This document shows, one piece after another, positions 29,225-56,115 of a DNA stretch of 64,000 nucleotides. A program made the position numbers and the translations under genes. The stretch is from IMG/VR virus record IMGVR_UViG_3300006204_000008, positions 1-64,000 of that record. One strand, given 5' to 3'. The notes beneath the pieces are model-generated. The model saw only the letters and a program-made list of their open reading frames with translations, was not told where the DNA came from and made no database searches. The stretch comes from a virus. Taxonomy: Duplodnaviria; Caudoviricetes. Position 1 is the first letter of the stretch, and each line of letters begins with the position of its first letter.

Positions 29225-29359
29225 TTGACAAATGCTGGATTTATGCTATAATGAGGGCTGAAAGTGAATAAGTAATCCTCACCGCAAGCAGGCGGCGGGA
29301 AGAGCCAAGCTGGGCTGAATCTATTTCCAGAGATGGAGATGGGTTTAGCCCAGTTTTTT
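29225..29359 (+). promoter_or_regulatory. Late-operon leader 1: promoter, conserved 31-nt hairpin motif, intrinsic terminator
   Basis: TTGACA(29225)-16-TATAAT(29247); CCTCACCGCAAGCAGGCGGCGGGAAGAGCCA at 29277-29307; CTGGGCT...AGCCCAG plus T run. Confidence 0.8.
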
Positions 29360-29393
29360 ATATCAAGAAATCAAGGGAGGAGGTGATGAGGAC

Positions 29394-29924
29394 GTGAGTG
29401 TAAGTGAAAACTACGGCTTTCAGCGCTGGCCCATGCTGCGGGAACCTTCCCGGGCTGTGACAGACGCCATGGAGAGAGCCATGCGCTTTATGGACAGCTG
29501 CAAAGAATCGGTCCTCATTTTGGAAGGGATGCCTATGACGGCACTGTGCATCCACAAGCAGGCCCATACCTACGGGGAGCTCTGGGACCAATTCGGTGAG
29601 ATACTGCACCAGCGTCATTTTATCCAGGAGTTTCCTGGAACGCCGGAGCTGGACGAAAAGCCGGACCTGAGCAGAGCCTTCGAGATCATGCTGGACTGCA
29701 TGGAGCGGGTCATTACAGCCCTGGGAGAGTTCATCTTGGCGGCGGACGCCAACCGTCTTTATCCCCTGGGCCGGGAGGCAGAAAACCTGCAGATGGAGGT
29801 CAGCGGGGATATGACCCGCTGGCTGGAAGCGGCAAGGCTTTGGGAGGATTCGGCGGGAAGCAAGGTATCCTTCGAGAAATGGATGAGGGACTTCTTCGAT
29901 GCAGGACCGGATACGGCGGAATGA
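29394..29924 (+). CDS. Helical protein, possibly ferritin-like
   Basis: Four-helix pattern with HKQAH and ENLQ; first gene of the head operon. Confidence 0.45.
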   Translation: MSVSENYGFQRWPMLREPSRAVTDAMERAMRFMDSCKESVLILEGMPMTALCIHKQAHTYGELWDQFGEILHQRHFIQEFPGTPELDEKPDLSRAFEIMLDCMERVITALGEFILAADANRLYPLGREAENLQMEVSGDMTRWLEAARLWEDSAGSKVSFEKWMRDFFDAGPDTAE

Positions 29925-29937
29925 GAGGGGAAGTGCG

Positions 29938-31347
29938 ATGAAAGCAGTGAAAACGAAGCCTCTGCTGGACCCCATTCGTGTGGTACAGACGGGAGAGCTG
30001 AAAGTTCTGCGCAGACAGAACGCCTTTCTCTCCGACGTGGAGCTCTGGGTACTCAACGACCTGGTCAACCGAAATAACTGGCGGTTCGTCAACCTGGAGG
30101 AGCATCGGGCCCTCTTTGCTGGGACGCCGATCCTCATCGCCTACATCCACAAGGGAGCGGGCATCGGAGACGGCCATAACTTTGAGCTGCGCCGGGACCC
30201 CAAGACGGGGAAGAACCGTCCGTCCTTCACGGCGGACACGGCGGAGCGGATCGTGGGATCTCTGTCGGATGATCCCGGCGATATCCGGCTGGAAGAGAAA
30301 GGCGGCGTGACTTGGGTGGTCGCCCGGGGAACACTCTGGAACTTCTACGCGCCGGAGCTGGTGGACAAGATCACGGCGGATGCTGCGCAGGGACGGACCA
30401 TGTCGGTGAGCATCGAAGCCCTGGTCCAGGAGTTCCACATAGGCGAAGAGGGCGAGGAAGTGGAGGACCGGTGGATTCCTCTGGGCACCACCATCCTGGG
30501 GGACCACGTTGCCCCTGCAGTGAAAGACGCCCGGATCGTAGCAATGCAGGAGGGCGGGAGCTTTGAGGAATTGAAGGTCCGGGCAGCCTCGTATGCGAGA
30601 AACAACGGCAACCAAAAGAACGGAAGAGGAGGGAGCGCAAAGATGAACAAGAAAGCCATGGAACAGCTGGCTGCTAAGTTTGAGGGCTATAAGGTCCTTG
30701 CTGTGTCCAAGGACGGACGGCGTGTCATTCTTTTGGACCAGGGGGGCGGGGCCTACGGCTACACCTTCGGGGAAGAGGACCAGGGCGAAGTTATCCAGGC
30801 CAAGATCAAGCCCACGGAGCTGAGTGTCCGCACCGCGGCTGAGGACGGCGAAGAGGGCCTGAGCCTGGACATGGACGACATTCTGGACCATGTGACCAAC
30901 AGCGTTCGGGATCAGGCAAAGACCATTGAGAACCTGAACAAGCAGCTGGAGGAGGCCAACGCCGCCGTGGAGGCCATGAAGCAGGCCGAACAGCAGCGCC
31001 GGGTGGACAGCGTCAAGGATGTGCTCACACGCACTCTGGAGGAAATCAGGGAAAACACTGGCGCGGATGTCTCCGAGCTGGCGGAAAAGGTCAAAGAGCT
31101 GTCGGATAAAGCGGAAAACTATGCGCAGCTGGAGGACAGCGAGGGCAAGTTCTGCGGCGCAGACCAGGCCAAGAAAGACCTCCTGGCGATTCACGGGGAA
31201 CTCTGCATCAAGAAAGCGAAGGCGCAGAAGCTGGCGGAGAAGAACACCTACATCTGGGATCATCTGCGGCGCAGCAGCGCCGGCAGCGGTGAGGATGATG
31301 GCGGGATTGCCGGACTGCTGGCCAGAAACGGAATCACCAACGAGTAA
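29938..31347 (+). CDS. Prohead protease/scaffolding protein (SPbeta YonD-like position)
   Basis: Globular N-terminal domain (NRN..., GTPILIAY, MSVSIE) plus a long coiled-coil C-terminus, upstream of the capsid genes. Confidence 0.65.
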   Translation: MKAVKTKPLLDPIRVVQTGELKVLRRQNAFLSDVELWVLNDLVNRNNWRFVNLEEHRALFAGTPILIAYIHKGAGIGDGHNFELRRDPKTGKNRPSFTADTAERIVGSLSDDPGDIRLEEKGGVTWVVARGTLWNFYAPELVDKITADAAQGRTMSVSIEALVQEFHIGEEGEEVEDRWIPLGTTILGDHVAPAVKDARIVAMQEGGSFEELKVRAASYARNNGNQKNGRGGSAKMNKKAMEQLAAKFEGYKVLAVSKDGRRVILLDQGGGAYGYTFGEEDQGEVIQAKIKPTELSVRTAAEDGEEGLSLDMDDILDHVTNSVRDQAKTIENLNKQLEEANAAVEAMKQAEQQRRVDSVKDVLTRTLEEIRENTGADVSELAEKVKELSDKAENYAQLEDSEGKFCGADQAKKDLLAIHGELCIKKAKAQKLAEKNTYIWDHLRRSSAGSGEDDGGIAGLLARNGITNE

Positions 31348-31370
31348 GGAAAAGGGAGGGACAATTCAAG

Positions 31371-31970
31371 ATGGCCTATATTGAAAAAACTGCTTTTGAG
31401 GCGCGGATCACGAACAACGAGTTCAACGAGCTTGTGAATGTGACGGGCCGATTCCAGACGGATGAGACGGATGACGTGTGTTCGGCCGGGATGCTGTGCG
31501 TGAGAGGGGATCAGCTTCCTTGTGCTGGTTTTCCTGCCTCTGTGAAGAACGAAAATGCTTGGTATATGACGGCTGCGGCATCAACGGTGAATGCCAACGA
31601 AGTGATTTATGCCAGCAACACCTATGACTGGAACCTGCTTCAGGACCCCGTGACAGGCAACGCCTATGCCGTCGGGGTGGAGACCCTGGGTCTGCCCATC
31701 CCCAAGGGCCGGGACGGGACTTTCACGCAGATCGTGTTTGACGGCGTTCATGTGTACCGCTTTGGTGAGGGCAACTTCTCTGCGGAAGTGGGGAGTAATA
31801 CGTTCTTCACGATTGCGGATGGGCTTCTGGTGCCTGCCGCCGCTGCTCCGACGGCTGCCGGGGCCATTTACTTCAAGCTCCGGGGTACCGGCAGCTTCAC
31901 GGTAGGTACCCGTCAGGCATTCGGTTATGTGGACGTGGTGGCGTGCAAAGTCAACGCTGCCGGCAACTGA
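31371..31970 (+). CDS. Capsid decoration/auxiliary head protein
   Basis: Beta-rich 199-aa protein between scaffold and capsid genes. Confidence 0.5.
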   Translation: MAYIEKTAFEARITNNEFNELVNVTGRFQTDETDDVCSAGMLCVRGDQLPCAGFPASVKNENAWYMTAAASTVNANEVIYASNTYDWNLLQDPVTGNAYAVGVETLGLPIPKGRDGTFTQIVFDGVHVYRFGEGNFSAEVGSNTFFTIADGLLVPAAAAPTAAGAIYFKLRGTGSFTVGTRQAFGYVDVVACKVNAAGN

Positions 31971-31987
31971 GAGAGGAGGAAGACAGA

Positions 31988-33226
31988 ATGAAACTTTCCT
32001 TGAACAGCATTCCTCAGAGTGTATTTTCTGTGCGGGCGTGCGACACCCAGGACAAGACCAGCGAGAGGGCGAACCTGGTTGCCTTGGGCCGTCTGCTGAA
32101 CTTCTCTTATGCGGAGCAGGGTAAGCGGATGCTGGATAAGGCCAAGGGCATGGATGTCATTGGCGACCGTTTGCCGCTGACGGCTCAGGCATACCGGGAA
32201 ACCAACGAGAAGTTCCGCCAGGGCCATCTGCTCTATGCGGCGAAGCGTCTGTGCGACTTTACAGGTCAGCAGGCCCCGGAGGATTTTGAGGCATTCAAGC
32301 GTCAGTCCCAGAACTACTACGGAAACCCTGACTTCTACCGGATTCTCCAGGGCATCTATGTAGAGATCATCACGCCGATCCTGCCGTCTGTGTACTCTGA
32401 GGCGGTGAGCCTGTTTGCTGAGGTGGTAGAGGTCGGCTTCGGGGAGACCTACACGGTGCAGGTAGGCTCCAACGACATTCCTGTGTTCCAGGATTCCTCC
32501 TGGGGCGCTTCTCGGTCGGTGCCCCGCAATCGCTTCTATGATGCGTCTTACACGCTGAATCCCTCTCCGAAGAGTGCGTGGATCACGGCAAAGTGGACCC
32601 AGCTGGTGGGTAACGGCATGGACTTCGGACGGTTCTTCGCCAACATTGCCGCCGGTATGTATGCCAAGACCATGGGGATGTTCAATCAGGCGATGGTTAC
32701 GGCCACTGCTGACACCAGCCTGATTCCTGCCGGCTTGAACTACACCTTCAACACCCCCAACTGGGTTGCGGCATCTGCCAAGGTGGCGGCACTGAACGGC
32801 ACGATTATCAGCAACGTGTTCGCCACGGGGGCGGCCGTGCCGCTGAGCAAGGTGCTTCCCACCAACGTGACCGGCAGCACCAACGTGAATATGGATGCAG
32901 CCATCGCCACGCTGCTGGGCGCAGACTATACCCGCAGCGGCTACCTGGGCGAGTTCATGAGTGTTCGCCTGATTCCCTTCATGGATGCTGTGGTACCGGG
33001 CACCCAGAACACCACGGTTGACCTGATCACCAGCCAGACGGATATCTGGATGATGGCGGGGAACGGACTGAAGCCTCTGACGATGGCCTTCAACCGCGAC
33101 ACACCCATTACCATTGAGATGGACCCGACCAAGACGGCGGATTTCGAGATCGGATTCAACCTCACCATGGCGCTGGATTCCGTAGCGGTGTTCGCCGGCA
33201 AAATCGCGCACTTCACGGTGGCCTGA
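31988..33226 (+). CDS. Major capsid protein
   Basis: 412 aa; position after scaffold and decoration genes; composition consistent with an HK97-fold capsid. Confidence 0.7.
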   Translation: MKLSLNSIPQSVFSVRACDTQDKTSERANLVALGRLLNFSYAEQGKRMLDKAKGMDVIGDRLPLTAQAYRETNEKFRQGHLLYAAKRLCDFTGQQAPEDFEAFKRQSQNYYGNPDFYRILQGIYVEIITPILPSVYSEAVSLFAEVVEVGFGETYTVQVGSNDIPVFQDSSWGASRSVPRNRFYDASYTLNPSPKSAWITAKWTQLVGNGMDFGRFFANIAAGMYAKTMGMFNQAMVTATADTSLIPAGLNYTFNTPNWVAASAKVAALNGTIISNVFATGAAVPLSKVLPTNVTGSTNVNMDAAIATLLGADYTRSGYLGEFMSVRLIPFMDAVVPGTQNTTVDLITSQTDIWMMAGNGLKPLTMAFNRDTPITIEMDPTKTADFEIGFNLTMALDSVAVFAGKIAHFTVA

Positions 33227-33406
33227 ATTTTCCGGGGGGAGGGGAGTTCCCTTTCCCCCGCTTTATGCACCTGCGGGAAGAAGCCGGTTCAACTCCGGCG
33301 AGGTGCATTTTGACGGAATGCTATACTAAAAACAGAGGGAACGCAGGGCGGGCAAGCCCCCGCCGCCTCTGACGATAAAACCAAAGGATGGAAAGGAGCG
33401 GACCCA

Positions 33407-34189
33407 ATGGCAAGACAGAAGAAGACGGATCTGCTTCCCGAAGGGGAGCTTATGGAGGAGACCGGCGCGGCCGGCATGACCCTTGGCGAGAGTTCGGAAG
33501 GGGAGCCTCCCACGGAAGAGGCGGAAACCAAGATGGAGACGATTTCTCTGGAAGACAGCGATCTTGCTGTCGAGATGGAGAAACTGCGCCGGCAGAATGA
33601 AACCCTCGTGGAACAGATGGAGATCATGAAGGAGCAGCTGCAAAAGCAGAGTGTCCCGACCGTGGTCCAGGTATCCGCCGAAACGGAGCGGGTTCGCTTC
33701 CTGTGGCAGGCAGAGGTAGCCAACGAAAACATCAAGACCTTTGGGGAAGGCGGGATGTTTGGCCGGATCGTGGGCAAAACGGGAAGCTTCTATGTCCCCA
33801 AGAGCGACTTGGCCCGGGTAATGGATGCGGAAAACCGCCTGTTTTTGGACAAACGCTGGCTGATCGTGGTCAGCGGTTTGGATGAGGAGGAGCGGGAAGC
33901 CCTGGGCGTGAATTATCACGACGGGGAACTGCTTGATCGGAGGGCGTTTGAGAAGATGGTGGAGCTTGGGGACGAGCTGTTGGAGCTGTACCCTGAGCTG
34001 TGTGAGGGGCATAAGGTGATGGTGGCTCAGCGTTACCGGGAAGCCTTTGACCGGGGAAGCCCCCATGTGACCCGGGAGCGTGTGACTGCCCTGCGTGACA
34101 TGGCCCAAACGGCCCATATCACACCCAACCCCTTCACCAGCATCCTGCAGGAGATGAACAAGCGGGAAGCCGGAGAGGGCGAAGGCTGA
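33407..34189 (+). CDS. Hypothetical virion-module protein
   Basis: Acidic N-terminus, coiled coil, follows the capsid gene. Confidence 0.6.
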   Translation: MARQKKTDLLPEGELMEETGAAGMTLGESSEGEPPTEEAETKMETISLEDSDLAVEMEKLRRQNETLVEQMEIMKEQLQKQSVPTVVQVSAETERVRFLWQAEVANENIKTFGEGGMFGRIVGKTGSFYVPKSDLARVMDAENRLFLDKRWLIVVSGLDEEEREALGVNYHDGELLDRRAFEKMVELGDELLELYPELCEGHKVMVAQRYREAFDRGSPHVTRERVTALRDMAQTAHITPNPFTSILQEMNKREAGEGEG

Positions 34190-34200
34190 GGAAGAGACCT

Positions 34201-34251
34201 ATGGCAAAGTGTATAAATACCACTATTTACCAGTGGGGGGGGGCGTTCTGA
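34201..34251 (+). CDS. Poly-G leader peptide 2 (MAKCINTTIYQWGGAF*), G9 at 34235-34243
   Basis: With 8 or 11 G it would end at TGA 34289-34291, overlapping ATG 34291. Confidence 0.7.
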   Translation: MAKCINTTIYQWGGAF

Positions 34252-34290
34252 CCTCCTGATTGGCGAAATGCCCAAAGGGGGGTGCGTCTG

Positions 34291-34800
34291 ATGGCATATG
34301 TTGCCCCCAACTGGAAGAATGGCGCGGCCCCCGCGCTGGATGCCGCAGCCTTACAGGCAATCAGCGACGCCATTGTGGAGTTGCAAAACAAGAATACGTC
34401 CCAGGATAGCCTGATTGCTTCTTTGCAGTCAGAAATTTCATCCCTAAAGGATGGAAATATTCAGGTAGCCAGCGGATCATATTCAGGCACAGGAAGATCC
34501 GGAAGCTATGAAAACAGCACGAGAATTAACTTTCCCTTTGTTCCTGGCGTTATCTTCCTCTATTGCCCTAATGATGGCTGCTGCATGACCATCACTTCGA
34601 GTTCACAACAGAATACAATGTATCTGTTTGGCTCCAGCGGATCTGTGGTTTATGCATTTGATTGGACCCAGATTTCTGTAAGCCCAAAGTATGGTACAGG
34701 ATCTATTGCTTGGTATGGGAGCTCGGCTAAGAGACAGGCGAATGAATCAGGAAAGAAGTATTACTACCGAGCGTTTGGTAGGGTAGAAAAGAGTGCTTGA
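34291..34800 (+). CDS. Cassette 2 putative receptor-binding protein
   Basis: MAYVAPNWKNGAAPALDAAALQAISD N-terminus; GSYSGTG...WY...Q.N...YYY.AFG head domain. Confidence 0.65.
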   Translation: MAYVAPNWKNGAAPALDAAALQAISDAIVELQNKNTSQDSLIASLQSEISSLKDGNIQVASGSYSGTGRSGSYENSTRINFPFVPGVIFLYCPNDGCCMTITSSSQQNTMYLFGSSGSVVYAFDWTQISVSPKYGTGSIAWYGSSAKRQANESGKKYYYRAFGRVEKSA

Positions 34801-34861
34801 TATCCAAAGTTATATTTTGCCATAGGTGTTGCGGCACTGATTTCATAAAGGAGGAATCTGC

Positions 34862-35566
34862 ATGGGCACCACATGGTCAGAAGTTATCACGGACTATGCG
34901 ATGCTGGAGATCAACGACATACGCCTCCAGCAGGAATCGGCACAGAATCCGGCGCAGTTTTTCCGGCGGATGAGTGCGTATATGAAAAATGCGATCCCCC
35001 GATTTACCAGTCCCCCGGAAGAACGGGCGTGGCTTTCCCATACACCCCCTCAGTTTTGGGATACCGCATGGACGGCCCCGGCGGGAGGCGAAGCGGCCAC
35101 GCTGGAGACAGGTCAAACGGGTTTTGAGATGATGAGCGTGGTGGAGGCCCAAGCCGCAAGGACGGGGGAAACCCTTTGGGTGCCGTACACGGAGGCCAGC
35201 TATGACCCGGAGACGGGGGACGTGTGTTTTCCAGCGGGCATCCCGGAGGGGACGCGGTTCCGTCTGGATTTCTTCACCGACGGTGTGTTTGACTACGAAC
35301 TTTCCGAAGAGGAAAAGCATATCCTGGCCCTGTTTATCAAGCTGATCTGGACGAAACGCTTCGCCGGGGACTGGCTGAATATGCAGCCCAAGGTCAAGGA
35401 TAAGAGTTTCAGCACCGGCGCAGAGTCGAACCAGATTCGGGCCATGACGGAGCGGGGAACAGCAGACAGCTATGATGTGTATGCGCAGATGGCAACGTAT
35501 GCGCAGAACGTGGAATATCTGAACCTTCTGCGGCAGGGCCGTGTCCCGACCCCCAGGAGGCCATGA
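34862..35566 (+). CDS. Putative head-tail adaptor/neck protein
   Basis: Position after the capsid genes; AAGGAGG SD. Confidence 0.5.
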   Translation: MGTTWSEVITDYAMLEINDIRLQQESAQNPAQFFRRMSAYMKNAIPRFTSPPEERAWLSHTPPQFWDTAWTAPAGGEAATLETGQTGFEMMSVVEAQAARTGETLWVPYTEASYDPETGDVCFPAGIPEGTRFRLDFFTDGVFDYELSEEEKHILALFIKLIWTKRFAGDWLNMQPKVKDKSFSTGAESNQIRAMTERGTADSYDVYAQMATYAQNVEYLNLLRQGRVPTPRRP

Positions 35567-35578
35567 GGGGAAAAGGCT

Positions 35579-36928
35579 ATGGCAGGAGAAGAACACACAG
35601 TGAGGATAGAGGACAGGCTTAGGAATGTATCTGCTGTGGCGGATGTCCCTATCGTGATCCCGGGAAATACTCCGGCCCAGGCGGCAGGGCGGCAGTTTGC
35701 CTATTTTGAAGGGGAGACGGCTCTGTTTCGTGAGTTGTATGACCAGTACGCCGCCGATTATTTTGAGGCCCAAGTCCAGGGACTTGACCCGGAGGATTTT
35801 ATGGCCTGGAGCTGGCAGAAGCTCCGCTTTTCGGATATGGCGGACCTGACGCCGACGGCAACATACCTGTCGGACAATATCAAGCTGGTGCTGTTTGCCA
35901 GTGCGGCGATTCAGTATGTGCCCCGTGGGGCGAAGATCGTGACGGCGGGCTCTACCTGGTTAGTGACCAACCCGCAAAGCATTTCTGGGGTCAGTGCGGT
36001 GGCGGTGGCGGAACGCTGCGCTGCCATGTGGCACTATTTTGACTGGTACGGAAACGTCAAGGGGGAGCCGATGGTGGTGCGGGATCAGATTGCCCGGGCT
36101 TCTGCCCAAGACCCCCAGGACTGGCTTTTGATTACGAAGCAGTATTTCAACGTCAAAATGCAGTACAACGAGGCAACCGCCCAACTGAACACAAACAGCC
36201 GCATGATCCTGGGCTCGGGAGCCTACCACATTACGGGATATTCTGACTTCCTGCGGGAGTTTACGGAGGACGGAGAAAGTATCCACATGGTGGAATTCGC
36301 CCTGCGGTATGAGGAGCCCAACGATGCCATCGACGATATGGCGCGGCAGGTAGCGGGAGGAAAGAACTTCTCGTGGGAGGTGGATGTCTCCGGCCCGAAG
36401 CAGCTGCGGGTGGGAGAGAATGCGGTGTATCAGGCCGCGTCCCTGCGGTGTGGGGAGGGGGTGGAGAACAGCGAGGAGCATCCCATCACCTACCTATGGG
36501 GCAGCAGCGACAGCGAAATGGCGCAGGTGGATGAGGCAAGCGGAGAAGTGACAGCCTTTGCTGCCGGACGGGTCACCCTGACAGCTGTCTTGTCTGAGAA
36601 CCCGGAGCATAGCGGGAGCTTTGAGATTGAAATCTCAGAAGCAGCGCCGGAGGAGAAGTATGCTGTCTTTCTGGGAACGGTACCGGAAAAACTGTCAGCC
36701 TATGAAAGTATGACGCTCCGTGCTGTCTGCTGCCGGGGCGGCACTCAGCTGCCCGAGGAGCCGGTGACGTGGAACTTCACTGGGGCGCAGCTGAGTGCCT
36801 ATAGCGCGGTGGTCCATGGAAACGAGGCGCATATTTCCTGCTGGGGCGGGAGTGTGGAGCCTTTGGCCGTCACAGTGTCGTTTGGAACAGGAAAGACCAC
36901 AGCGGAAATTCAACTGGAAGGGATCTGA
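35579..36928 (+). CDS. Putative head-closure protein with C-terminal Ig-like (Big_2) domains
   Basis: RGAKI....STWLVT head-closure-like core; WGSSDSEMAQVDEASGEVTAFAAGRVTLTA Big_2 pattern. Confidence 0.6.
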   Translation: MAGEEHTVRIEDRLRNVSAVADVPIVIPGNTPAQAAGRQFAYFEGETALFRELYDQYAADYFEAQVQGLDPEDFMAWSWQKLRFSDMADLTPTATYLSDNIKLVLFASAAIQYVPRGAKIVTAGSTWLVTNPQSISGVSAVAVAERCAAMWHYFDWYGNVKGEPMVVRDQIARASAQDPQDWLLITKQYFNVKMQYNEATAQLNTNSRMILGSGAYHITGYSDFLREFTEDGESIHMVEFALRYEEPNDAIDDMARQVAGGKNFSWEVDVSGPKQLRVGENAVYQAASLRCGEGVENSEEHPITYLWGSSDSEMAQVDEASGEVTAFAAGRVTLTAVLSENPEHSGSFEIEISEAAPEEKYAVFLGTVPEKLSAYESMTLRAVCCRGGTQLPEEPVTWNFTGAQLSAYSAVVHGNEAHISCWGGSVEPLAVTVSFGTGKTTAEIQLEGI

Positions 36929-36932
36929 ATAC

Positions 36933-37109
36933 ATGGCTTCTGAGAACTGCCCCCACGCAGTGAGAAAGCGGGGGGATGTGAGCATCCATTGCAAAAAGCT
37001 GGAGGGAGAGCGGTATACCCAGTGCGCCCACCAGTATTTCTGCGGCCAGACCAAGCGTTGGGAGGCATCACCCAATGCGGCGGACTGCCCGCTGCGGGTC
37101 CGAAAGTAA
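36933..37109 (+). CDS. Small Cys/His-rich protein
   Basis: CPHA...HC...CAHQYFC...CPL. Confidence 0.55.
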   Translation: MASENCPHAVRKRGDVSIHCKKLEGERYTQCAHQYFCGQTKRWEASPNAADCPLRVRK

Positions 37110-37146
37110 AAGCGTACCAAGACAAGCGAAGAGAAGGAGGAAGGGT

Positions 37147-37785
37147 ATGCAGATTTATCGGTTGAACGAAGAGAAAGCGGCGAAGCTGCGGGCCTATATG
37201 CCAGTGATGGAGAAGGCAGCGTTCGTGGAGCAGGCGGCCAGTCGCTGCTTTGATCGGTTGGAGGTGGGCTATCACGGGAACGGGATGGACCTGCCCCTGG
37301 CCCCCATGTACAAGGAAAATCCTCAGCTTCCGGCCCGATACCTGATGGGCGTTTTGGTGAAGTTCTACCTGGGCGAGAGTTTCGAGGGTGTAGAGGAGGA
37401 TCCAGAGCTGATGAGTGCAGACGATTACGACCGCTGGGCTCGGGCTGACCCCTTGGGACAGCTCATCCAGTGGAAGAGCAAGGATCCGGGGGCGCGGGAG
37501 ACGGCGGCGTTCCTGCTGCGGGACTATCACGATTTGGAGAAACGGTTTTACCGGGAGATCGCGGGCCTGCTGCAGGTGATGAACGATCCCCTGGGGCGGC
37601 TGTTCTATGTGCTGGAATCCTACAGCCAGACCGGGCCGAACGCCTGGGAAAAAGGCGTGGAGGACTTGAAGAAGGTCCGGGATGAGCTGGAAGCCTACCA
37701 TAAAGGGAAAGAAAAGGCGCGTGAGAAGGGGGAAGGCTGCGCTCAGGAGACGGAGGAAGGAGCGCGGAGCGATGGCGGCGTGTGA
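37147..37785 (+). CDS. Hypothetical morphogenesis protein
   Basis: ORF with SD in the structural operon. Confidence 0.55.
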   Translation: MQIYRLNEEKAAKLRAYMPVMEKAAFVEQAASRCFDRLEVGYHGNGMDLPLAPMYKENPQLPARYLMGVLVKFYLGESFEGVEEDPELMSADDYDRWARADPLGQLIQWKSKDPGARETAAFLLRDYHDLEKRFYREIAGLLQVMNDPLGRLFYVLESYSQTGPNAWEKGVEDLKKVRDELEAYHKGKEKAREKGEGCAQETEEGARSDGGV

Positions 37786-38476
37786 GGTGGGGTTTGAAAG
37801 CCCCTATTACCCCTATGAGAAGGTGCAAACGGGCTTCAACACCCTGCGCGGGGCCGAAGAAATTCCCGCCAAGATTCTTCGATATCTGCTTGACCTGCCG
37901 GACTGGAAAGGGTATCAGCCTGTAGATGATAACAGCAGGCCAAGGGTGAGGTTGGCAAAGTATGTGTACTATGACGATGCAAACCCTTTGTCTTATCCGC
38001 TGCCGTCACCCCAGCAGAAGCTGAGCCTGTTGTATGATGGGGACCAGCCTGTAGTGAACACAGACGAGGAGAAGGTGCGTCACCCCAAGGGTTACCGGCT
38101 GTATCCCCAGATGTATTGGGGGCAAAGTCAGCTGGAGGCCCAGACTACAGTGAAATGCTACATTGGTCGTGTGCTTCCTGTGAGCGAGATGAGGACAAGC
38201 ATCGGCCTGAGTTTTGTGATCTTATGCAATACCAGCCAGGAGAACAACACGAGAACGGACGCCTACTCCCGGGCGTATGACATTGAGCAGTGTATCATTG
38301 AGGCGCTGCACGGTGTGAATCTGTCAGGTATCGGCGTGGTGGAGTTCTCCCGGCCCAGCCACTTTGACAACGGGAGTGAAGCCATTGCCGACCAGGGAAC
38401 CAACGTAGGCCGGGAGCTTCACATGAGCATCAGCTGGATGGAGAGCGGAGGAAGCGAAGATGGAACTCTCGGCTAA
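37772..38476 (+). CDS. Putative tail terminator/completion protein
   Basis: Position upstream of the tail tube gene; overlapping neighbours. Confidence 0.45.
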   Translation: MAACEVGFESPYYPYEKVQTGFNTLRGAEEIPAKILRYLLDLPDWKGYQPVDDNSRPRVRLAKYVYYDDANPLSYPLPSPQQKLSLLYDGDQPVVNTDEEKVRHPKGYRLYPQMYWGQSQLEAQTTVKCYIGRVLPVSEMRTSIGLSFVILCNTSQENNTRTDAYSRAYDIEQCIIEALHGVNLSGIGVVEFSRPSHFDNGSEAIADQGTNVGRELHMSISWMESGGSEDGTLG

Positions 38477-39332
38477 GACGGCGCGGGCCATCCGCGTTTA
38501 CGAGCCTGTGAAAACGGAGGGCTTGACCCTGTACCCGATTTTGATGCAGGAGTATGAGAGTTTTCTGCAGGGGAAGTCGGCGATCTCTTTTCTGGCGCGG
38601 TCGCTGCCCCTGGAATATCTGTCCCAGCCGCTTCTCTCGGCCTTTTACCGGATGGATATGACGGCGCTGAGGCAGGGAGAGGAACCATCGGGGATGTTTT
38701 ACCGAAGTCTGCTCTTCCTGGCTCTGTCTCTGCGCTTGGGAGAGGGGAAGAGCGAGGAGGAGCGTGTGAAGCTGTTCCGCGTGGCAGCGGAGCGGGAGCA
38801 ACCAGATAAACTTCTGGCCGTGGAGGCGGAGACCGGAGAGGGAGAAAAGATTCGGATCACGCCGGTGATGTTCCAGCGCCTGCGGCCCATCCTGGCGGCG
38901 CAGAATGGGATCGAACTGCTCAGCGACGACACAAACCCTGACCTGCTGGAAGCAGAACGGGACATTGCCCAGCAGCGGGGGCCGAAGCTGGATTATAGGA
39001 TGGATAGCCTCATAAGCACGGTAGCGGCCCTGAGCGGAAGCGAAGAAAGGGATCTGGAGGACTGGCCCATTCTAAAGTTTCAGAGGAGACAGGAGGCATT
39101 GGAACGGGTACTGAACTTCCTGATCTGCGGCGTGGGAGAGACCCAGGGGACGAAGTGGAAGAAAGGGAATCCATATCCCAGCCCGTTCTTTGACCGGGTA
39201 CAGGAGGACAGCGCGGCGCTTGTCTCGCTGGAATCCTACGCAGGGGGCGCGGGGCTGGAAGCCGTACGCAACGCAGGAAACAGCGTGGCTCCGGCTGCGC
39301 CCATCCTGGAATTTCCGATGATTGGAAAATAG
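38460..39332 (+). CDS. Hypothetical tail-module protein (possible assembly chaperone)
   Basis: 290-aa ORF adjacent to the tail tube gene. Confidence 0.45.
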   Translation: MELSAKTARAIRVYEPVKTEGLTLYPILMQEYESFLQGKSAISFLARSLPLEYLSQPLLSAFYRMDMTALRQGEEPSGMFYRSLLFLALSLRLGEGKSEEERVKLFRVAAEREQPDKLLAVEAETGEGEKIRITPVMFQRLRPILAAQNGIELLSDDTNPDLLEAERDIAQQRGPKLDYRMDSLISTVAALSGSEERDLEDWPILKFQRRQEALERVLNFLICGVGETQGTKWKKGNPYPSPFFDRVQEDSAALVSLESYAGGAGLEAVRNAGNSVAPAAPILEFPMIGK

Positions 39333-39348
39333 AAAGGAGTAAACACGC

Positions 39349-40488: not shown

Positions 40489-40506
40489 TGATAGAGGGAT
40501 AAATAC

Positions 40507-40538
40507 TACAGGGCTCCTCGGTTTTGAGGAGCCCTGTA
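40507..40538. terminator. Intrinsic terminator
   Basis: Perfect 13-bp stem TACAGGGCTCCTC / GAGGAGCCCTGTA. Confidence 0.7.
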
Positions 40539-40765
40539 AAAGAAATAGCCCCCCAAAAAGCAGAGGGCTATCGCTTGGTTCGAGCCTGCACTTAATACCC
40601 CGCACGCAGGCACGCGGCCGTCGAAAGCGAGTTGCACACTTATAAACCGCTGGCAACACGCGGCAACATTGGGTAGAGCTAAGCAGAGCTTAGTTTCCCT
40701 TTTATATTATAAGAATTCCGGTGAGAAATCCACCATCAGCTTATACGAAAAAGGAGGAACCGACT

Positions 40766-40816: not shown

Positions 40817-40855
40817 CCTCCTGACTAGCAGAATGCCCAAAAGGGGGTGCGTCTG

Positions 40856-41931: not shown

Positions 41932-41953
41932 ATTCGGGAAGGGAGGAAAGAAA

Positions 41954-42379: not shown

Positions 42380-42397
42380 GGAAGGATGGGATAGAGC

Positions 42398-49441: not shown

Positions 49442-50401
49442 ATGGAACGAGAAAAAATACCGCCTGCGGAGCAGCAGCGGCGGTACAACGAATTGGAGCA
49501 GGAGACCAGCACAGACTTGGCGTATTTCTATTGCTGCATCGCTTTTGATGTTCCCTTCGCTCCAGAAGCGGTACCCAAGGACGAGGGGGCGGACCGGTGG
49601 GTGCAGTACCTCAAGAACCTAGCCCGGATGCCGCAATATCTGGACCGGAAGGGCAAGTATCTGAGCTTCCTGGCCGGGAGGACGAACGTCCTGGAGATTT
49701 TTGGGGCCAGCTTGGATGTGGGACGGTTCCGGGAAGCTCTGGAGGACGGCAAGCCCGGGACCCGGGAGCAGAGGGAGACTTGGGGTGTGGGGCCTAAAAA
49801 ATATCCCTACACCGCGGAAGATTATGACGAGCTGGACCGGACTTATAAAATCCTCTCCTCAGATTTGGAGAAGGCCGGGGGCGTGTCTGTGAAGCAGGAG
49901 TTTGTCCTTCGCCGCTGCTCCACCCGTACCCTTGAAATGAAACGGCTTGAGGACGCGGGCCGCCTAGACTCAGCCAAAAAGCTCCAGGAAATGATTCAAA
50001 AGGACCTGGAATCGGAACAGCTACGCAAAAAGGACGCCAAGCCCGTTGAAGACTTCCGGCTGGATTCCCTGGCCGACGCACTGGAGAAGGCGGGGCTGAT
50101 GCGGGAGGGAAAGTGGTGCCCCCCCGATGAGGCGTTTGAAATCTTCTTTGGGCATCCCCCTGCCTACCCTTACACCCGGGATGCGGCGGATCAGATGATC
50201 CTCATCAATGAGAACCGGATGCGGAACAACGACGGCCTGCCGGAGCTGGGGATTCTGCCGGACGAAATGCGTCTGGTGGATGAGCTGGGCGAGTTTGCCC
50301 AGGAGCAAAGTCCCAGAGAAGTGACAGCGTATGAAAAGCTGGGCCTGGTGAAAATGCCCCCTGTGGGGCAGGGGGAAAGCCCGGAGGAGGGCGGGAACTG
50401 A
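49442..50401 (+). CDS. Putative terminase small subunit
   Basis: Directly upstream of the large terminase; helical, 319 aa. Confidence 0.5.
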   Translation: MEREKIPPAEQQRRYNELEQETSTDLAYFYCCIAFDVPFAPEAVPKDEGADRWVQYLKNLARMPQYLDRKGKYLSFLAGRTNVLEIFGASLDVGRFREALEDGKPGTREQRETWGVGPKKYPYTAEDYDELDRTYKILSSDLEKAGGVSVKQEFVLRRCSTRTLEMKRLEDAGRLDSAKKLQEMIQKDLESEQLRKKDAKPVEDFRLDSLADALEKAGLMREGKWCPPDEAFEIFFGHPPAYPYTRDAADQMILINENRMRNNDGLPELGILPDEMRLVDELGEFAQEQSPREVTAYEKLGLVKMPPVGQGESPEEGGN

Positions 50402-50417
50402 TGGGAAAGGAGGAAGC

Positions 50418-52274
50418 ATGGCCCATAGGACAGGGAAAGCCTATATCAACAACCTGGGATGGGTGAGCAAGAAGGCCACAGCAGACCGGGACTATCAGGG
50501 CTATGAGGACGCCGTGGGGGCGTTTGTGCTTTGGGTGTTCCGGTGGTACCCGGACAAGCTCTTGGACATCCTGCGAAGCCCGGAGGCAGATTATAAAAAC
50601 GAAGAGCTGATCCAGCGGGTTATGATGCGGGCTTATGCCAGAAAACAGCGGGTCAGTTTTACGGGCTGCCGGGGCCTGACCAAGACTTCCACCAAGTTCA
50701 AGTCCAAGCTCATTGACGGGTTGGTTTGGCCCGGAACACAATCCAGTTACTACGGACCGTCCTATAAACAGATGGCGGCGATTGCCTCCAAGACCTTCCA
50801 CCAGATCGCTCATGATTACCCCGTTTTGGCGGGGATGTGGCGGGTGGCGGCGGAATCCAAGGACGATTTCAAGATCCAGACTGTGTTCGGCTCTACCTTT
50901 TCCATCGCCGCCATGCGCGGAGACAATATCCATGATGTGACGGCGGAGGAGTATGCCCAGGAAGAGAACCCTGCCTTTGACTATCTGGAATATAAGCGGG
51001 TGGTGCTTCCGGCAGTGCGCCTGTGGCATAACGTCCTGGGCGCCCCGGATGAGAACTATATCGGCTACAAACGCCATGCCATCACCTCCGCCGGACGGAA
51101 GCAGAATCATGCTTATCAGACCCGGTGTCGGGTGGCGAAGGCTATGAATGAGGGCGAGAGTGCTTTTGCCATGGATATCTCCTGGGAGAGCGTAGTCCTG
51201 CAGCTCATGCGGCCTTTCGATTGGGCGGCGGACCTGAAAGAAGAACTGACCCCAGAGGAGTGGATGCGGGAGATGGAGAGCCGTTACACAGGAACCGATG
51301 AGTTCCCCATGCTCACGGAAGAAACCCTGCTGGACAGCCAGAGAAACGCCGTGATGGAGCGGCAGCACTGCTGCAAGGAAGCGGAATGCAAGCTGCGGCC
51401 CGAGGATGTGATCTACATCGTGGGCTACGACGTGTCCTACGAGGACAGCGCCCGCAACGCCAAGTGTGCTCTGGTGGTGCTGAAACTCACCCGGTACAAG
51501 AACTATATGAAGCGCAACGTGTACTGCAAGGAAGTGGTCTATGTGGATGACTGGCCCCCGCCGGACAATCAGATGGTGCAGGCGCGAAAGCTGAAGGACG
51601 TGTGGAATCGTTTCTGCTATGAGGGCAGCGAGACCTATATCGCCATTGACTGCTGGCAGTACGGCAAGGGCGTGGTGGAATGCTTGATGATGGACCTGGC
51701 CGACGGACTGCCGCCACTGTGTGTGTATGAGCACGCCATGTACCGGGACACGGAGCTTCCCGGATCTTTGCCGGTGATCTACCCCATCAAGGCCGGCGGT
51801 GCGGGGGTGACGGATCCGGACTTTGAGATGATCAAGTATGCCCAGACCCAGTTTGACAACCACAATGTATCCTTACTGTTGGGGAATCAGCGGGAGGGTG
51901 TAGAGGCATACAAGCGGTATCACAACATCAAGACGGATATGCAGGACTGGTATATCGTCAAGCCATATCAGAAGTGCCGGGAGCTGGTGGGGCAGATCCA
52001 GAATCTGAAGCTCATGCCCTCTGGCGCTGGAATGAGTGAGAAGCGGATCAGTAAAAGTATCCAGCGTGACAGCTGGTCAGCTTTGAAGTATGCCCTGCGC
52101 TTTGCCCAGCGGTTAGAATGGCAGAATCTGCGGCAGAGGAACCGGAGCAGCGATTGGGACGAACTTCTGAGGCAGTACGAGGACAAGGCCCCTGGACGCT
52201 CTGATCTTCTCTCCTGGGGAGGACGAGGGAAAGGGAGGCTGGCGACACAGAGGAAAGGAGGCAGATTATTTTGA
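50418..52274 (+). CDS. terL: Terminase large subunit (SPbeta YonF-like)
   Basis: RGLTKT Walker A variant, AMRGD...EEYAQE Walker B region, ITSAG, nuclease GYDVS and IAIDC. Confidence 0.85.
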   Translation: MAHRTGKAYINNLGWVSKKATADRDYQGYEDAVGAFVLWVFRWYPDKLLDILRSPEADYKNEELIQRVMMRAYARKQRVSFTGCRGLTKTSTKFKSKLIDGLVWPGTQSSYYGPSYKQMAAIASKTFHQIAHDYPVLAGMWRVAAESKDDFKIQTVFGSTFSIAAMRGDNIHDVTAEEYAQEENPAFDYLEYKRVVLPAVRLWHNVLGAPDENYIGYKRHAITSAGRKQNHAYQTRCRVAKAMNEGESAFAMDISWESVVLQLMRPFDWAADLKEELTPEEWMREMESRYTGTDEFPMLTEETLLDSQRNAVMERQHCCKEAECKLRPEDVIYIVGYDVSYEDSARNAKCALVVLKLTRYKNYMKRNVYCKEVVYVDDWPPPDNQMVQARKLKDVWNRFCYEGSETYIAIDCWQYGKGVVECLMMDLADGLPPLCVYEHAMYRDTELPGSLPVIYPIKAGGAGVTDPDFEMIKYAQTQFDNHNVSLLLGNQREGVEAYKRYHNIKTDMQDWYIVKPYQKCRELVGQIQNLKLMPSGAGMSEKRISKSIQRDSWSALKYALRFAQRLEWQNLRQRNRSSDWDELLRQYEDKAPGRSDLLSWGGRGKGRLATQRKGGRLF

Positions 52275-52612
52275 GCAGCGCAAAGGAAAAAGTGTGGAAG
52301 GTCTGGGCTATGCCTTTCGGCGAAGATACGTCCCGGGAGGCCCAATCCTTTCCCTGCTGCCGGATCACGAAAGACTATATTCTGGTCTACAGCCCGCAGC
52401 CGCCCGAGGGAGCGGCGGTGGAGGTTGGAGCGGAAGAACTGTACCGGCTGACCGGGCAGGACAATGACTGGCTCCTGGGGGCACTCCTGGAGCAGCTGGG
52501 ACGCAGGATGAAGGAAGAGGAAAAAGAAATCCAGTCCCGCCTGCGGGAGAAGGTGGAACAGCTGGCTGCTGAGCTGCAGAAGGAAGCAGAGAAAGAAGGG
52601 CTGCCCTTATGA
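52271..52612 (+). CDS. Hypothetical protein between terminase and portal
   Basis: Overlaps both neighbours. Confidence 0.55.
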   Translation: MSSAKEKVWKVWAMPFGEDTSREAQSFPCCRITKDYILVYSPQPPEGAAVEVGAEELYRLTGQDNDWLLGALLEQLGRRMKEEEKEIQSRLREKVEQLAAELQKEAEKEGLPL

Positions 52613-54390
52613 GAGAAGCACGGAATCTGACGGAAGATTTACAGCAGGCGGCATTCGGCTCCTACCAGGAAATCTTTGATACGTTCCGCACTTTGTCACA
52701 GAAGTATGGGAACCTGTCGCAGGACGGCATGATCGCCGCCTTTACGCGGGTGAGCGGGCAGGGGGCTTTCCTCAATAACCCCTACATACAGAACCGGCGG
52801 GTGAAAGGTATTTCCTCTCTTCCGGCGGACTTCACCAAGGACCAGGTGGGGGAGATGCTGCGAAGCGCGGAGAGCAACGAGCAGCCCCTGCGGCAGGTGG
52901 AGCATGGGTTGGAGTATACGGCTTATCCGCTGCTCCACATGAGAAAGGTCTACCAGGACCTCCTGACCTATCACAACTGCTTTACGCCGGCTTTTGTAGA
53001 CAGGGAGGACGTGAAGAAGGATTCCTTCTGGCGGGAATGGCGGCTGCTGGAAAAGATGAGACGGGAACTGAACCCAGGACGATGGGCCCATCAGATCGCC
53101 GGTCAGGCCATGCAGGAGGGGAAGGTGTTCTATGTTCCCCGGGTGGAGGTGGACAAGAGCCACAATGAAGTCTGCCACGCCTTTCTGCAGCAGCTGCCGT
53201 CGGACTGGACCAAAATCGTGGGGTTCAACAATAAGTCGAAGTATACGGTGTCGTTCAATCTCTTCTACTTCCTGCAGCCGGGGACGAACCCGCTCCAATT
53301 CGGGGACCTGTTCCTGCCTTACCTGGACCCGTTCTTTTCCCTCCTGCCGCCAAAGCCCCCGAAAGGGACGGGCAGGACGGTTCTGTACGCATCCAAGAAT
53401 GCCTTGGACCTGACACGGTTTGAGGCCATGCAGAAAGCGGGGACGCTGGGAGGAGAAGTGGATGCCTATTATCAAAACGGGCGTTGGTTCTATTGGGTGA
53501 CCCTCCCCGTGGAGAAAGTCTTTCCCTTTGAGATAGACGATGCCAACCGGGCAGTGGTATCCCCGTGGACGGGCCTGTTTTTGAGCCTGATCCAGCTGGC
53601 CCAGTATGAGCAGGTGCAGCTGGAGCTGGTGCAGAACCCGCTGATTTCCCTGCTGACGGGGGAAATCCCTTATTATGATTCCCAGTCCTCCAAACTGGAG
53701 GATACCTACCGGCTGTCCAGGACGGGCCAGAAGATGTTTGAAAGTTTCTGGTACCAGATGTTGGAGCAGAGCAACACCAGCGGGATCGGCCTTTACATGG
53801 CTCCCCTGGCAAATATGAAGCTCCACACGCTGTCGGAAGCCCCTGGCGCCACGGAGATCAGTTCCAATGGCTACGCTTACACCATGGCGAAGGCAGGGCT
53901 GGCGGGCATCATCCCCACGAAGGAGGATCCGAAGGCCGGACTAGCGCAGATATCATTCAAGATCGAGAGCCGCTTTGCACAGCAGATTTATGGCGATTTT
54001 GAGCGGATGGTAAACTGCATCGTGAAGGGCCTGCATCTGAACTACCGATGGACTTTCCGTATGTTTGGAGATCTGGCGACAGACCCGGAGTTGGAGGAGG
54101 GCGCCCGAAAAGGTATGACTTTGGGCATCCTGCCAGACACCATTTTGTACAACGCCCTGCACGACCGCAGCATATTGGATGATATGTCGGTATCCTTCGC
54201 GGTGGCGGAAAGTGGTATCATGGACGCACGGCTTCCCTTGGTGACCAGCTACAGCGCCAAGAATCCGGACAGCGGTCTGCCGCCGGAGGTAAAGCACGAG
54301 CTGAACCCTGGGGGACGCCCGGACAGCGGAGGGAAGGCTACGTCGGAAGGCCAGGAGCAGGACATTGACCAGGGAGGAGGCACGGTGTGA
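52609..54390 (+). CDS. Portal protein
   Basis: 593 aa after the terminase; helical; ends with a GGRP-containing low-complexity tail typical of portals. Confidence 0.7.
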   Translation: MREARNLTEDLQQAAFGSYQEIFDTFRTLSQKYGNLSQDGMIAAFTRVSGQGAFLNNPYIQNRRVKGISSLPADFTKDQVGEMLRSAESNEQPLRQVEHGLEYTAYPLLHMRKVYQDLLTYHNCFTPAFVDREDVKKDSFWREWRLLEKMRRELNPGRWAHQIAGQAMQEGKVFYVPRVEVDKSHNEVCHAFLQQLPSDWTKIVGFNNKSKYTVSFNLFYFLQPGTNPLQFGDLFLPYLDPFFSLLPPKPPKGTGRTVLYASKNALDLTRFEAMQKAGTLGGEVDAYYQNGRWFYWVTLPVEKVFPFEIDDANRAVVSPWTGLFLSLIQLAQYEQVQLELVQNPLISLLTGEIPYYDSQSSKLEDTYRLSRTGQKMFESFWYQMLEQSNTSGIGLYMAPLANMKLHTLSEAPGATEISSNGYAYTMAKAGLAGIIPTKEDPKAGLAQISFKIESRFAQQIYGDFERMVNCIVKGLHLNYRWTFRMFGDLATDPELEEGARKGMTLGILPDTILYNALHDRSILDDMSVSFAVAESGIMDARLPLVTSYSAKNPDSGLPPEVKHELNPGGRPDSGGKATSEGQEQDIDQGGGTV

Positions 54391-55144: not shown

Positions 55145-55189
55145 GTCAGTGCAGAGAGCAATTCTCTAAATAAGTAGAAGGAGCATAAA

Positions 55190-55525
55190 ATGAAACTAAT
55201 CGAAATCGCCGCTCTGGAAAACGGGGCGCATAGAAACCAGGAAATCTATGGGGTTGAAGATATGGAAATACCCAAGGGATACGCCGTCATCCCAGAGGAT
55301 ATGGAGATACCGGAAACCTTTCCGTTTGTGAACGTCAAGGCTGAGCCCGTGACACGCACGATGGATGTCGGCAGGGACGAAGAGGGCAACCCTGTTCAGG
55401 ACACCTTCGAGCGCATGGAGGTAGTGGAACTCACCCCAGGCGAAGTTCCACCCCCGGAGCCAGAGCCTCCCAGAGAGCCCACCGACAGCGAGATTTTAAG
55501 CGCCATGCTTGGTCTGGCGCAGTAA
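55190..55525 (+). CDS. Tail-fibre-associated protein (chaperone-like)
   Basis: Ends PEPEPPREPTDSEILSAMLG, typical of genes downstream of fibre genes. Confidence 0.5.
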   Translation: MKLIEIAALENGAHRNQEIYGVEDMEIPKGYAVIPEDMEIPETFPFVNVKAEPVTRTMDVGRDEEGNPVQDTFERMEVVELTPGEVPPPEPEPPREPTDSEILSAMLGLAQ

Positions 55526-55540
55526 GAGGAGGGAAACGAA

Positions 55541-55969
55541 ATGGACAAGCTGCAAGCAGCCGAACAGTTCCGCCGCACCTTACAGCTCTTTGCGGCAAGC
55601 TTGGGCGAGGATCAGGCCAGGGAAGTGGCAACCATCTACCCCCACTATGCGCCTGGGACTGTCTACACCAAGGGCCAGTACATCATTGCGGGGGAGGACG
55701 GCAACGGGGACCCGCTGCTTTATCGTGTTGAGCAGGACCACAGCAGTCAGGAGGATTGGCCCCCAAAGAGTACGCCGTCCCTCTATACCTGCCTCAGTCT
55801 GACGGAAGAAGGATATCCCATTTGGAGTCCGCCCAGCGGGGCGCAGGACGCTTATAACATGGGTGATATCGTTTCCTGCGACGGGAAGCTTTGGAAGTCG
55901 GAAATCGACGGGAACACGACGCAACCCGGGAGTGACGGGCGGTGGTGGAGTGTTTATCATGAGGAATGA
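55541..55969 (+). CDS. Protein with CBM5/12-like (ChtBD3-like) modules
   Basis: YTKGQYI...LYRVEQDHSSQ and AYNMGDIVSCDGKLWKS...WW. Confidence 0.6.
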   Translation: MDKLQAAEQFRRTLQLFAASLGEDQAREVATIYPHYAPGTVYTKGQYIIAGEDGNGDPLLYRVEQDHSSQEDWPPKSTPSLYTCLSLTEEGYPIWSPPSGAQDAYNMGDIVSCDGKLWKSEIDGNTTQPGSDGRWWSVYHEE

Positions 55970-55991
55970 GAACACACCCCACTGACATTGT

Positions 55992-56115
55992 TTGACATTC
56001 CCCAAGTTTATGGTATAATCAGCTTAATATGAAATTCCTCGTCGCAAGCAGGCGGCGGGAAGAGCCAAGCTGGGCTGTTTTCTCCTGAACAAGGGGAAGG
56101 CAGCCCAGCTTTTTT
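55992..56115 (+). promoter_or_regulatory. Late-operon leader 3: promoter, conserved motif, intrinsic terminator
   Basis: TTGACA(55992)-16-TATAAT(56014); CCTCGTCGCAAGCAGGCGGCGGGAAGAGCCA at 56037-56067; AGCTGGGCTG...CAGCCCAGCT plus T run. Confidence 0.8.

Follow-up and report, generated by a model that had tools for sequence, protein, structure and literature searches.

Why would a phage set a strong transcription terminator between a promoter and the virion operon that the promoter should serve? The question is raised by three copies of a short RNA element in the genome of a Caudoviricetes virus (IMG/VR record IMGVR_UViG_3300006204_000008; 78,923 bp, rated 100% complete), whose first 64 kb form the stretch of DNA analysed here (the window). 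We propose that the copies are protein-dependent switches between terminator and antiterminator, each placed in the leader of a late (virion) operon and opened by a phage-encoded protein of 61 amino acids (aa), a reading to which we give a probability of roughly 55%. The RNA itself is, judging by its sequence and predicted folding, a divergent, sub-threshold member of the Rfam family gut-2 (RF02990) rather than a new RNA family.

A degenerate 31-mer occurs without mismatch at 29277-29307, 41842-41872 and 56037-56067, always on the plus strand, and is absent from 100 dinucleotide-preserving shuffles even with three mismatches allowed, which confirms the 31-nucleotide (nt) motif that the initial annotation of this DNA had reported at 29277, 41842 and 56037. 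Scored along the full 78.9-kb genome, position by position, a covariance model picks out these three copies and no others, at 52-59 bits; the next-best site reaches 10.5 bits. In each leader a hairpin with the loop AAGCAG precedes a 20-24-bp, G+C-rich terminator stem and a U tract, and the three leaders fold with a minimum free energy (MFE) of -47 to -55 kcal/mol (z = -6.0 to -6.9). Each copy consists of P1 (an 8-bp hairpin with the hexaloop AAGCAG), an AAG linker and P2 (a 4-bp mini-hairpin), arranged with the surrounding signals as follows:

29225..29252, plus strand: promoter of copy 1, TTGACA, 16-nt spacer and extended -10 TGnTATAAT (12 of 12 matches)
29278..29299, plus strand: P1 of copy 1, 8-bp stem with one A-C mismatch, supported by covariation; hexaloop AAGCAG at 29286-29291
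29300..29316, plus strand: AAG linker and P2 of copy 1, AGCC-AAGCUG-GGCU (the putative antiterminator)
29307..29361, plus strand: intrinsic terminator of copy 1, stem of ~24 bp and U tract, the 5' arm holding the P2 loop and P2 3' arm
41801..41829, plus strand: weak promoter-like site before copy 2, TTGATA, 17-nt spacer and CATACT (9 of 12 matches)
41843..41864, plus strand: P1 of copy 2, 8 contiguous pairs, loop AAGCAG at 41851-41856
41865..41880, plus strand: AAG linker and deviant P2 of copy 2, AGCC-AGAAG-GGCU (5-nt loop)
41872..41932, plus strand: intrinsic terminator of copy 2, overlapping P2, and U tract
55992..56019, plus strand: promoter of copy 3, TTGACA, 16-nt spacer and TGnTATAAT (12 of 12 matches)
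56038..56059, plus strand: P1 of copy 3, a C-to-U change retaining the pair as G-U, loop AAGCAG at 56046-56051
56060..56076, plus strand: AAG linker and P2 of copy 3, AGCC-AAGCUG-GGCU
56067..56117, plus strand: intrinsic terminator of copy 3, overlapping P2, and U tract

The element is therefore, as first described, fused to an intrinsic terminator ahead of structural operons. The block following P1, which had been given as an undivided invariant AAGAGCCA, is present in the sequence; it is made up of the AAG linker and the 5' arm of P2, a second hairpin that had been overlooked. Since the 5' arm of the terminator begins with the P2 loop and the P2 3' arm, P2 and the terminator are mutually exclusive, and this competition accounts for the conservation of the terminator arms around a variable interior. 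P1 and P2 alone are worth only -12 to -18 kcal/mol in the three copies of the window, against -46 to -54 for the MFE fold, so that P2 would need a stabilising factor.

This anatomy extends well beyond one genome. A search of IMG/VR in which only the ends of the loops, the linker and the core of P2 were specified, the P1 stems being free to vary, returned 41 loci. In 38 of these the P1 arms nevertheless make 7-8 of their 8 pairs, in many different sequences; an exact-loop pattern, CAAGCAGG-N6-GAAGAGCC, run over viral contigs gave 14 matches, all of them chance occurrences inside genes. Pairing was assessed in a seed alignment of 29 sequences, where 98% of cells are paired (72% in shuffles) and sliding the partners by 1-3 columns lowers pairing to 23-46%, and in an alignment derived from the covariance model, with 37 distinct sequences from ~25 phage records. 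In the latter, P1 is paired in 97-98% of cells with compensatory (double) changes in all 8 pairs, and the covariation score reaches 0.75 (0.18 in shuffles). P2 is 100% paired, with arm variants AGCC/GGCU, GGCC/GGCC, GACC/GGUC and GACU/AGUC, and three of its four pairs show compensatory changes when members come from the model and not from the fixed pattern. G-U pairs are frequent, and at columns 5/24 U-G outnumbers every other pair; together with the strict strandedness of the element they argue for an RNA rather than a DNA site, and the earlier prediction of a structured RNA is borne out by covarying, strand-specific stems.

Conservation is sharpest in the unpaired bases. All 37 sequences share A1, A2 and G6 in the P1 loop, G6 in the P2 loop and A27-G28 in the AAG linker; the first A of the linker is kept in 36 and the C preceding P1 in 35. 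Positions 3-5 of the P1 and P2 loops agree in 71% of cases within an element, as against 41% after shuffling (0 of 5000 shuffles reached the observed value, relatedness being uncontrolled). A kissing interaction between the two loops was dismissed by inspection: 3 bp could form here and none in relatives such as AAACGG/AAACGG. A terminator hairpin and U tract follow the element in 32 of 33 distinct instances, with all four bases of the P2 3' arm lying inside the terminator 5' arm; P1 and P2 alone amount to about -12 to -25 kcal/mol across these instances, compared with -32 to -54 for the MFE fold, so that P2 could not win unaided. The antitermination switch that had been suggested from the window is supported in outline by this overlap of P2 with the terminator. 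Two gut-2-like elements in metagenome-assembled genomes (MAGs), L157 from Oscillospiraceae and L165 from Ruminococcus, have perfect P1 and P2 stems with loops AAGUGG/AAGUGG and no obvious terminator after P2, and may be a variant acting differently, for example at translation.

What, then, is this RNA? The initial annotation recognised no known Rfam family and called for an Infernal search. At family thresholds no Rfam family is reached on the motif; in E-value mode the best match is gut-2, at 19.1 bits for copy 1 and 22.0 bits for copy 3, below the gathering threshold of 39.8 bits, and copy 2 is not reported by the gut-2 model at E <= 5. The cmscan alignments of copies 1 and 3 nevertheless cover all 48 gut-2 positions with both helices intact, and the ordered parts of the gut-2 consensus (CC, 8-bp P1, hexaloop AAnnGG, GAAG, 4-bp P2 with hexaloop) find their counterparts here, the P2 loop of copy 2 being 5 nt long. 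Ten of the 12 pattern-found relatives tested exceed the gut-2 threshold, at 46-59 bits, and a model built from the window copies and these pattern-found relatives scores all of them at 33-67 bits. Because such close architectural relatives pass the threshold, we place the window copies on a divergent branch of gut-2, contrary to the first impression of an unrecognised family.

In its description (Weinberg et al. 2017, PMC5737381), gut-2 has the same 48-nt architecture, with a conserved CC, an 8-bp P1 and a hexaloop starting with AA and ending with G; the GAAG junction (the last P1 base plus the AAG linker) and a 4-bp P2 with a GCC/GGC core and a similar hexaloop are likewise common to both. 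The loops differ, AAGCAG/AAGCUG here and AAUUGG in gut-2, and this is the main reason for the low scores of the window copies. Rfam assigns gut-2 the type 'Gene; sRNA', with function unknown; the main text of PMC5737381 names no function for it, and none was found elsewhere in the literature searched. To the family we add the overlap with a terminator, the multi-copy layout and a protein partner.

The layout is seen in all 25 virus records tested, each of which carries 1-3 copies, always on one strand, ~10-15 kb apart and before gene blocks. Seven of these records share a common virion module (this phage and G002, G003, G006, G008, G011 and G020), and five others, of ~26-42 kb, carry the same RNA and have no detectable structural proteins in common with the seven; copy positions vary even between related phages. 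The element had been called promoter-proximal, which holds for this phage, where copies 1 and 3 have consensus promoters and copy 2 a site with only 9 of 12 matches, but not for most relatives, in which it follows an upstream gene by 1-55 nt with no promoter between; promoters of its own are the exception, found here and at one G011 copy. In all-versus-all BLAST comparisons the only genes common to all motif-bearing phages are XRE repressors and integrases, generic genes of temperate phages. Contigs from bacterial genomes hold at least five true members (in Oscillospiraceae, Ruminococcus, Eubacterium, a 'Prevotella' MAG and one more) amid mostly chance matches, and give only a hint of the host range.

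How might such an element act? Among the systems it could be likened to, RNA targets of ANTAR proteins come closest. There, twin hexaloop hairpins, the second of which overlaps a terminator, are held by a dimeric protein, and both target loops carry A as their first and G as their fourth base (Ramesh et al. 2012, PMC3369931). Like the targets of EutV, NasR and AmiR, the element described here has two hairpins in tandem whose hexanucleotide loops resemble each other, and the second of them shares bases with the 5' arm of an intrinsic terminator; P2 is weak and, as we propose, requires a dimeric protein, and several copies would answer to one regulator. The loop signature is another: at position 4 this phage has C and the family as a whole C, G or U, and A1, A2 and G6 are the invariant bases. 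P1 has 8 bp as opposed to about 3, the linker is a fixed AAG instead of being variable, the candidate protein is a helix plus beta-hairpin of ~50 aa with no sensor domain, and the operons concerned encode phage virions, not metabolic enzymes. A six-frame search confined to the 78.9-kb phage gave no match at E <= 1 to the ANTAR domain (PF03861), though the host may encode one, and matches to the Q families (PF06530, PF03589) and to the ArpU family (TIGR01637; Ltr/ArpU/RinA late activators) were also absent from the phage at E <= 1.

The analogy with lambdoid nut/qut sites and HK022 put drawn in the initial annotation is less apt. At lambda PR'-tR' a strong, constitutive promoter directs transcription into a terminator close by, yielding a short RNA (6S) until the phage factor Q acts; Q binds DNA and a sigma-paused complex, and N and put modify the polymerase so that it reads through distant terminators. 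The production of a short RNA until a factor intervenes, and the use of an RNA hairpin as signal (boxB, put), are shared features. Those systems, however, alter RNA polymerase processively, whereas the present element physically overlaps its own terminator and, in relatives, is usually not beside a promoter; a protein-held mini-hairpin of the ANTAR type is the better fit. In BglG, SacY and LicT an all-beta CAT domain is fused to PRD sensor domains and recognises the ribonucleic antiterminator (RAT), a single imperfect hairpin. There too a small (~55-aa) dimeric RNA-binding module stabilises an antiterminator hairpin overlapping a terminator, but the candidate protein considered here has neither a sequence nor a fold match to CAT. 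Phages do not figure in a 2025 review of RNA-binding antiterminators.

An RNA with ANTAR-like anatomy, different loops and a different protein, in a phage with no ANTAR, Q or ArpU match, directs attention to whatever gene travels with it. In most phages a small open reading frame (ORF) ends 1-55 nt upstream of one copy, and its homologue in the window is the proposed P2-binding factor:

54392-54577, plus strand: candidate trans-acting factor of 61 aa, its ATG just after the portal stop codon and a ribosome-binding site (RBS; GGAGGAG) 12 nt upstream

A phmmer search of 1.8 billion representatives finds ~20 homologues of this mini-protein, of 49-81 aa, and the family is given as 45-80 residues long. 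A profile built jointly from all subgroups finds a match in 24 of the 25 motif-bearing records and in none of 17 control virus records (one of 437 kb), the sole motif-bearing record that it misses being 57% complete. In 21 of these 24 records the matched stretch stops no more than 60 nt short of a copy that lies downstream on the same strand, and wherever several copies exist the one adjoining the gene is the first in the direction of transcription. Within ~1 Mb of control loci the profile matches only L159 and L157 (E = 7e-15 and 0.002), each time immediately before a true motif. Starting from the protein, one locus (P0017) has the motif 11 nt past the stop codon, and in two (L131 and L134) it lies 107 and 125 nt further on. 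Five others (P0003, P0005, P0011, P0014 and P0021) tell nothing either way, as the small gene is followed by additional ORFs or the contig or flank stops short. The alignment of the protein offers no stretch of sufficient conservation for a search of related loci; the window's own mini-protein, used for this purpose, had no match, and the group A protein gave only five close loci. The pairing of RNA and mini-protein persists across two phage groups that have no detectable structural proteins in common.

Predictions made with AF2 give the window's own family a helix (residues 17-28) and a beta-hairpin (32-38 and 41-47), with core pLDDT above 90 and a basic C-terminal tail, and the group A subfamily a helix and three strands. 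Searches of Pfam and PHROGs returned no match to the mini-protein, Foldseek none in the PDB with E <= 0.001, a wide VIA-align comparison a best Z of 2.8, and the ESM Atlas only unnamed clusters with scores <= 0.80; sequence-profile matches in the PDB were confined to de novo designed proteins and ankyrin-like repeats and were taken as spurious. The regulators first put forward (ribbon-helix-helix (RHH), XRE, zinc-finger/AP2 and dead Rep proteins) are not linked to the motif in other phages, and the list had left out the 61-aa ORF that is. The gene behind the AP2 suggestion, at 26399-27232 (plus strand), encodes a 277-aa protein with double zinc-ribbon motifs and a PHROG HNH-endonuclease match; its C-terminal segment had been called AP2-like, and in other phages it is unlinked to the RNA motif.

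On the proposed reading, RNA polymerase would initiate upstream of the element, in this phage at a sigma-A promoter 7-20 nt ahead of it, and P1, being transcribed first, would always fold. In the absence of the factor, the sequence after the AAG linker would enter the 5' arm of the 20-24-bp terminator and transcription would stop after about 90-110 nt. Once the 61-aa protein had accumulated, it would, probably as a dimer, bind both of the similar hexaloops (AAnnnG), docking on P1 and then capturing the nascent 4-bp P2; the bound P2 would sequester bases that the terminator needs, and the polymerase would continue into the operon. We infer RNA binding by the mini-protein, its dimer stoichiometry and the readthrough. 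The position of the mini-protein gene, downstream of copy 2, would make a positive-feedback latch possible.

Several observations weigh against this proposal. No known RNA-binding domain is recognised in the mini-protein, and searches of Pfam, PHROG, PDB and Atlas yield no assignment or fold match; its two subfamilies are linked weakly, at hhalign E = 0.012, although in the same register. Its gene lies 1.46 kb upstream of copy 3 in this phage and 5 kb from the nearest copy in G002 and G022, and here it stands downstream of the copy 2 terminator, which leaves its first expression unexplained; the P2 loop of copy 2, AGAAG, departs from AAnnnG. Much of the co-occurrence count involves some circularity, since a number of the records scored had themselves contributed sequences to the profile; the matches in G002 and G022, though independent, are weak (E about 1e-6). 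Both the linker and most of P2 were held constant by the seed pattern, which exaggerates their apparent conservation. Adjacency could also reflect a co-inherited cassette whose protein does something else.

That last thought leads to the alternative that survives best, in which the same competition between P2 and the terminator is governed by another stabiliser (an RNA-binding protein of the host, a different phage protein or a small ligand) and the mini-protein gene merely travels along. The RNA anatomy is independent of which protein is assigned to it, the missing RNA-binding domain and the non-adjacent genes of this phage, G002 and G022 are easily accommodated, and loop positions 3-5 differ between copies in one genome, so that no tight co-evolution of protein and loop specificity is visible. 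We nevertheless regard another stabiliser as unlikely: co-occurrence in 24 of 25 motif-bearing records and 0 of 17 controls, with adjacency in 21 of 24, holds across otherwise unrelated phages, the phage contains no ANTAR domain, and a 42-nt pair of simple hairpins offers a ligand no junction or pocket of the kind found in ligand riboswitches.

Alternatively, the short terminated transcripts of ~100 nt, comprising P1 and the terminator, might themselves be the product, as trans-acting small RNAs (sRNAs) or as decoys that titrate a protein. The Rfam type of gut-2 points this way, as do the consensus promoters and strong terminators of copies 1 and 3, from which abundant RNAs of ~100 nt would be expected, and the L157 and L165 variants, with no obvious terminator after P2. 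In most phages, however, the element has no promoter and sits 1-55 nt after one gene and before another on the same strand with its own RBS; an sRNA would not require the overlap of P2 and terminator seen in 32 of 33 instances, and the variable terminator interior provides no conserved seed region. We consider an sRNA role very unlikely.

Could the terminators simply mark operon boundaries, the upstream hairpins serving RNA stability or processing (as a 5' stabiliser or RNase site) or a DNA role (as a protein-binding or packaging site)? The elements do lie at module boundaries beside packaging genes, and stable 5' hairpins are known to stabilise mRNA in Firmicutes. A terminator between a promoter and its operon, though, blocks expression unless it is overridden; a stabiliser leaves the P2 covariation, the invariant AAG linker and the twin loops unexplained, and a DNA cruciform or palindrome sits badly with frequent G-U pairs in an element strictly on the coding strand. 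This explanation is highly improbable. Least credible is a put- or EAR-like cis-acting RNA that, with no protein, would render RNA polymerase terminator-resistant through the operon: two adjacent stem-loops with invariant unpaired bases do head operons of 6-14 kb, much as putL and putR do in HK022, but a constitutive antiterminator immediately before its own strong terminator would make that terminator pointless, the overlap of P2 with a terminator arm is the signature of a competing-structure switch rather than of polymerase modification, and the element, at ~42 nt, is far smaller than put.

A switch opened by the mini-protein would govern much of the virion region, whose parts are listed here:

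29394..41371, plus strand: operon after copy 1, virion-module genes, supported by synteny
29899-31347, plus strand: phrog_3313 gene in the operon after copy 1
35579-36928, plus strand: Big_2/Ig structural protein in the operon after copy 1
39349-40488, plus strand: virion structural protein in the operon after copy 1
41954..48046, plus strand: operon after copy 2, with a 141-aa protein (41954-42379) and the tape measure protein (42398-48046)
49442..54390, plus strand: packaging module, supported by synteny
52609-54390, plus strand: portal, phrog_2739
56138..62933, plus strand: operon after copy 3, with a 695-aa protein and a 1550-aa tail protein with Ig-like repeats (phrog_1887)

The ORF at 50418-52274 is, from its position alone, probably the large terminase. 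In relatives G008, G003, G006, G020, G011 and G002 the packaging block (terminase, portal and mini-protein) comes before the head, tape-measure and tail blocks; in this phage (29394-62933) it has been relocated between the tape-measure and distal-tail blocks.

Dispersed paralogues occur across the window at 13351-14046, 34282-34800, 40847-41371, 48442-49053, 54644-55144 and 63073-63762, with another in the genome at 64010-65323, all on the plus strand; they share a conserved N-terminus of ~35 aa (consensus M..YVAPNWKNGAAPALDAAALQAISD) and have unrelated C-terminal parts. A poly-G tract precedes four of the six paralogues in the window, with two exact matches to TTACCAGTGGGGGGG at 34227 and 54588, and similar genes come after the mini-protein gene in contigs L135 and L140.

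Elsewhere in the window two ribozymes score above their Rfam thresholds, a twister-sister at 24931-25008 (minus strand, 65.7 bits) and a type II hammerhead at 25583-25647 (minus strand, 45.6 bits); they flank the minus-strand ORF 25008-25598 (phrog_23592, of unknown function), the RNA of which could be excised at both ends. A 78-nt tRNA-like gene lies at 20776-20853 (minus strand; Rfam tRNA, 45.4 bits) and is called tRNA-Phe with the unusual anticodon AAA by ARAGORN. The 857-aa ORF at 5247-7820 (plus strand) was considered as a terminator-ignoring phage RNA polymerase like YonO of SPbeta and rejected, as it encodes an SNF2 helicase fused to an N6/N4 DNA methylase; with the C5 cytosine methylase encoded at 3517-5328 (plus strand), it probably has anti-restriction or epigenetic functions.

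Taken more broadly, and somewhat more tentatively than the switch itself, gut-2 and the mini-protein family, which had not been described before and has a predicted helix with a beta-hairpin or beta-meander, may form a portable RNA-binding antitermination cassette of unrelated temperate phages of gut Clostridia, opening successive virion blocks. In the present phage the copies would have gained sigma-A promoters and the protein gene a place behind copy 2, giving a self-reinforcing latch, with the promoters idling into terminators until the protein appears. If this is true, it would provide a function for the orphan Rfam family gut-2 and add a fourth kind of RNA-binding antiterminator to CAT/PRD, ANTAR and HutP, in the form of a protein of ~50 residues with no known domain. 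It would also explain how virion genes are timed in widespread, uncultured phages of gut Clostridia that have no Q-, N-, RinA- or ArpU-type regulators, and a 48-nt RNA with a protein of ~60 aa, tiny and modular as the pair is, might serve as an orthogonal transcription switch.

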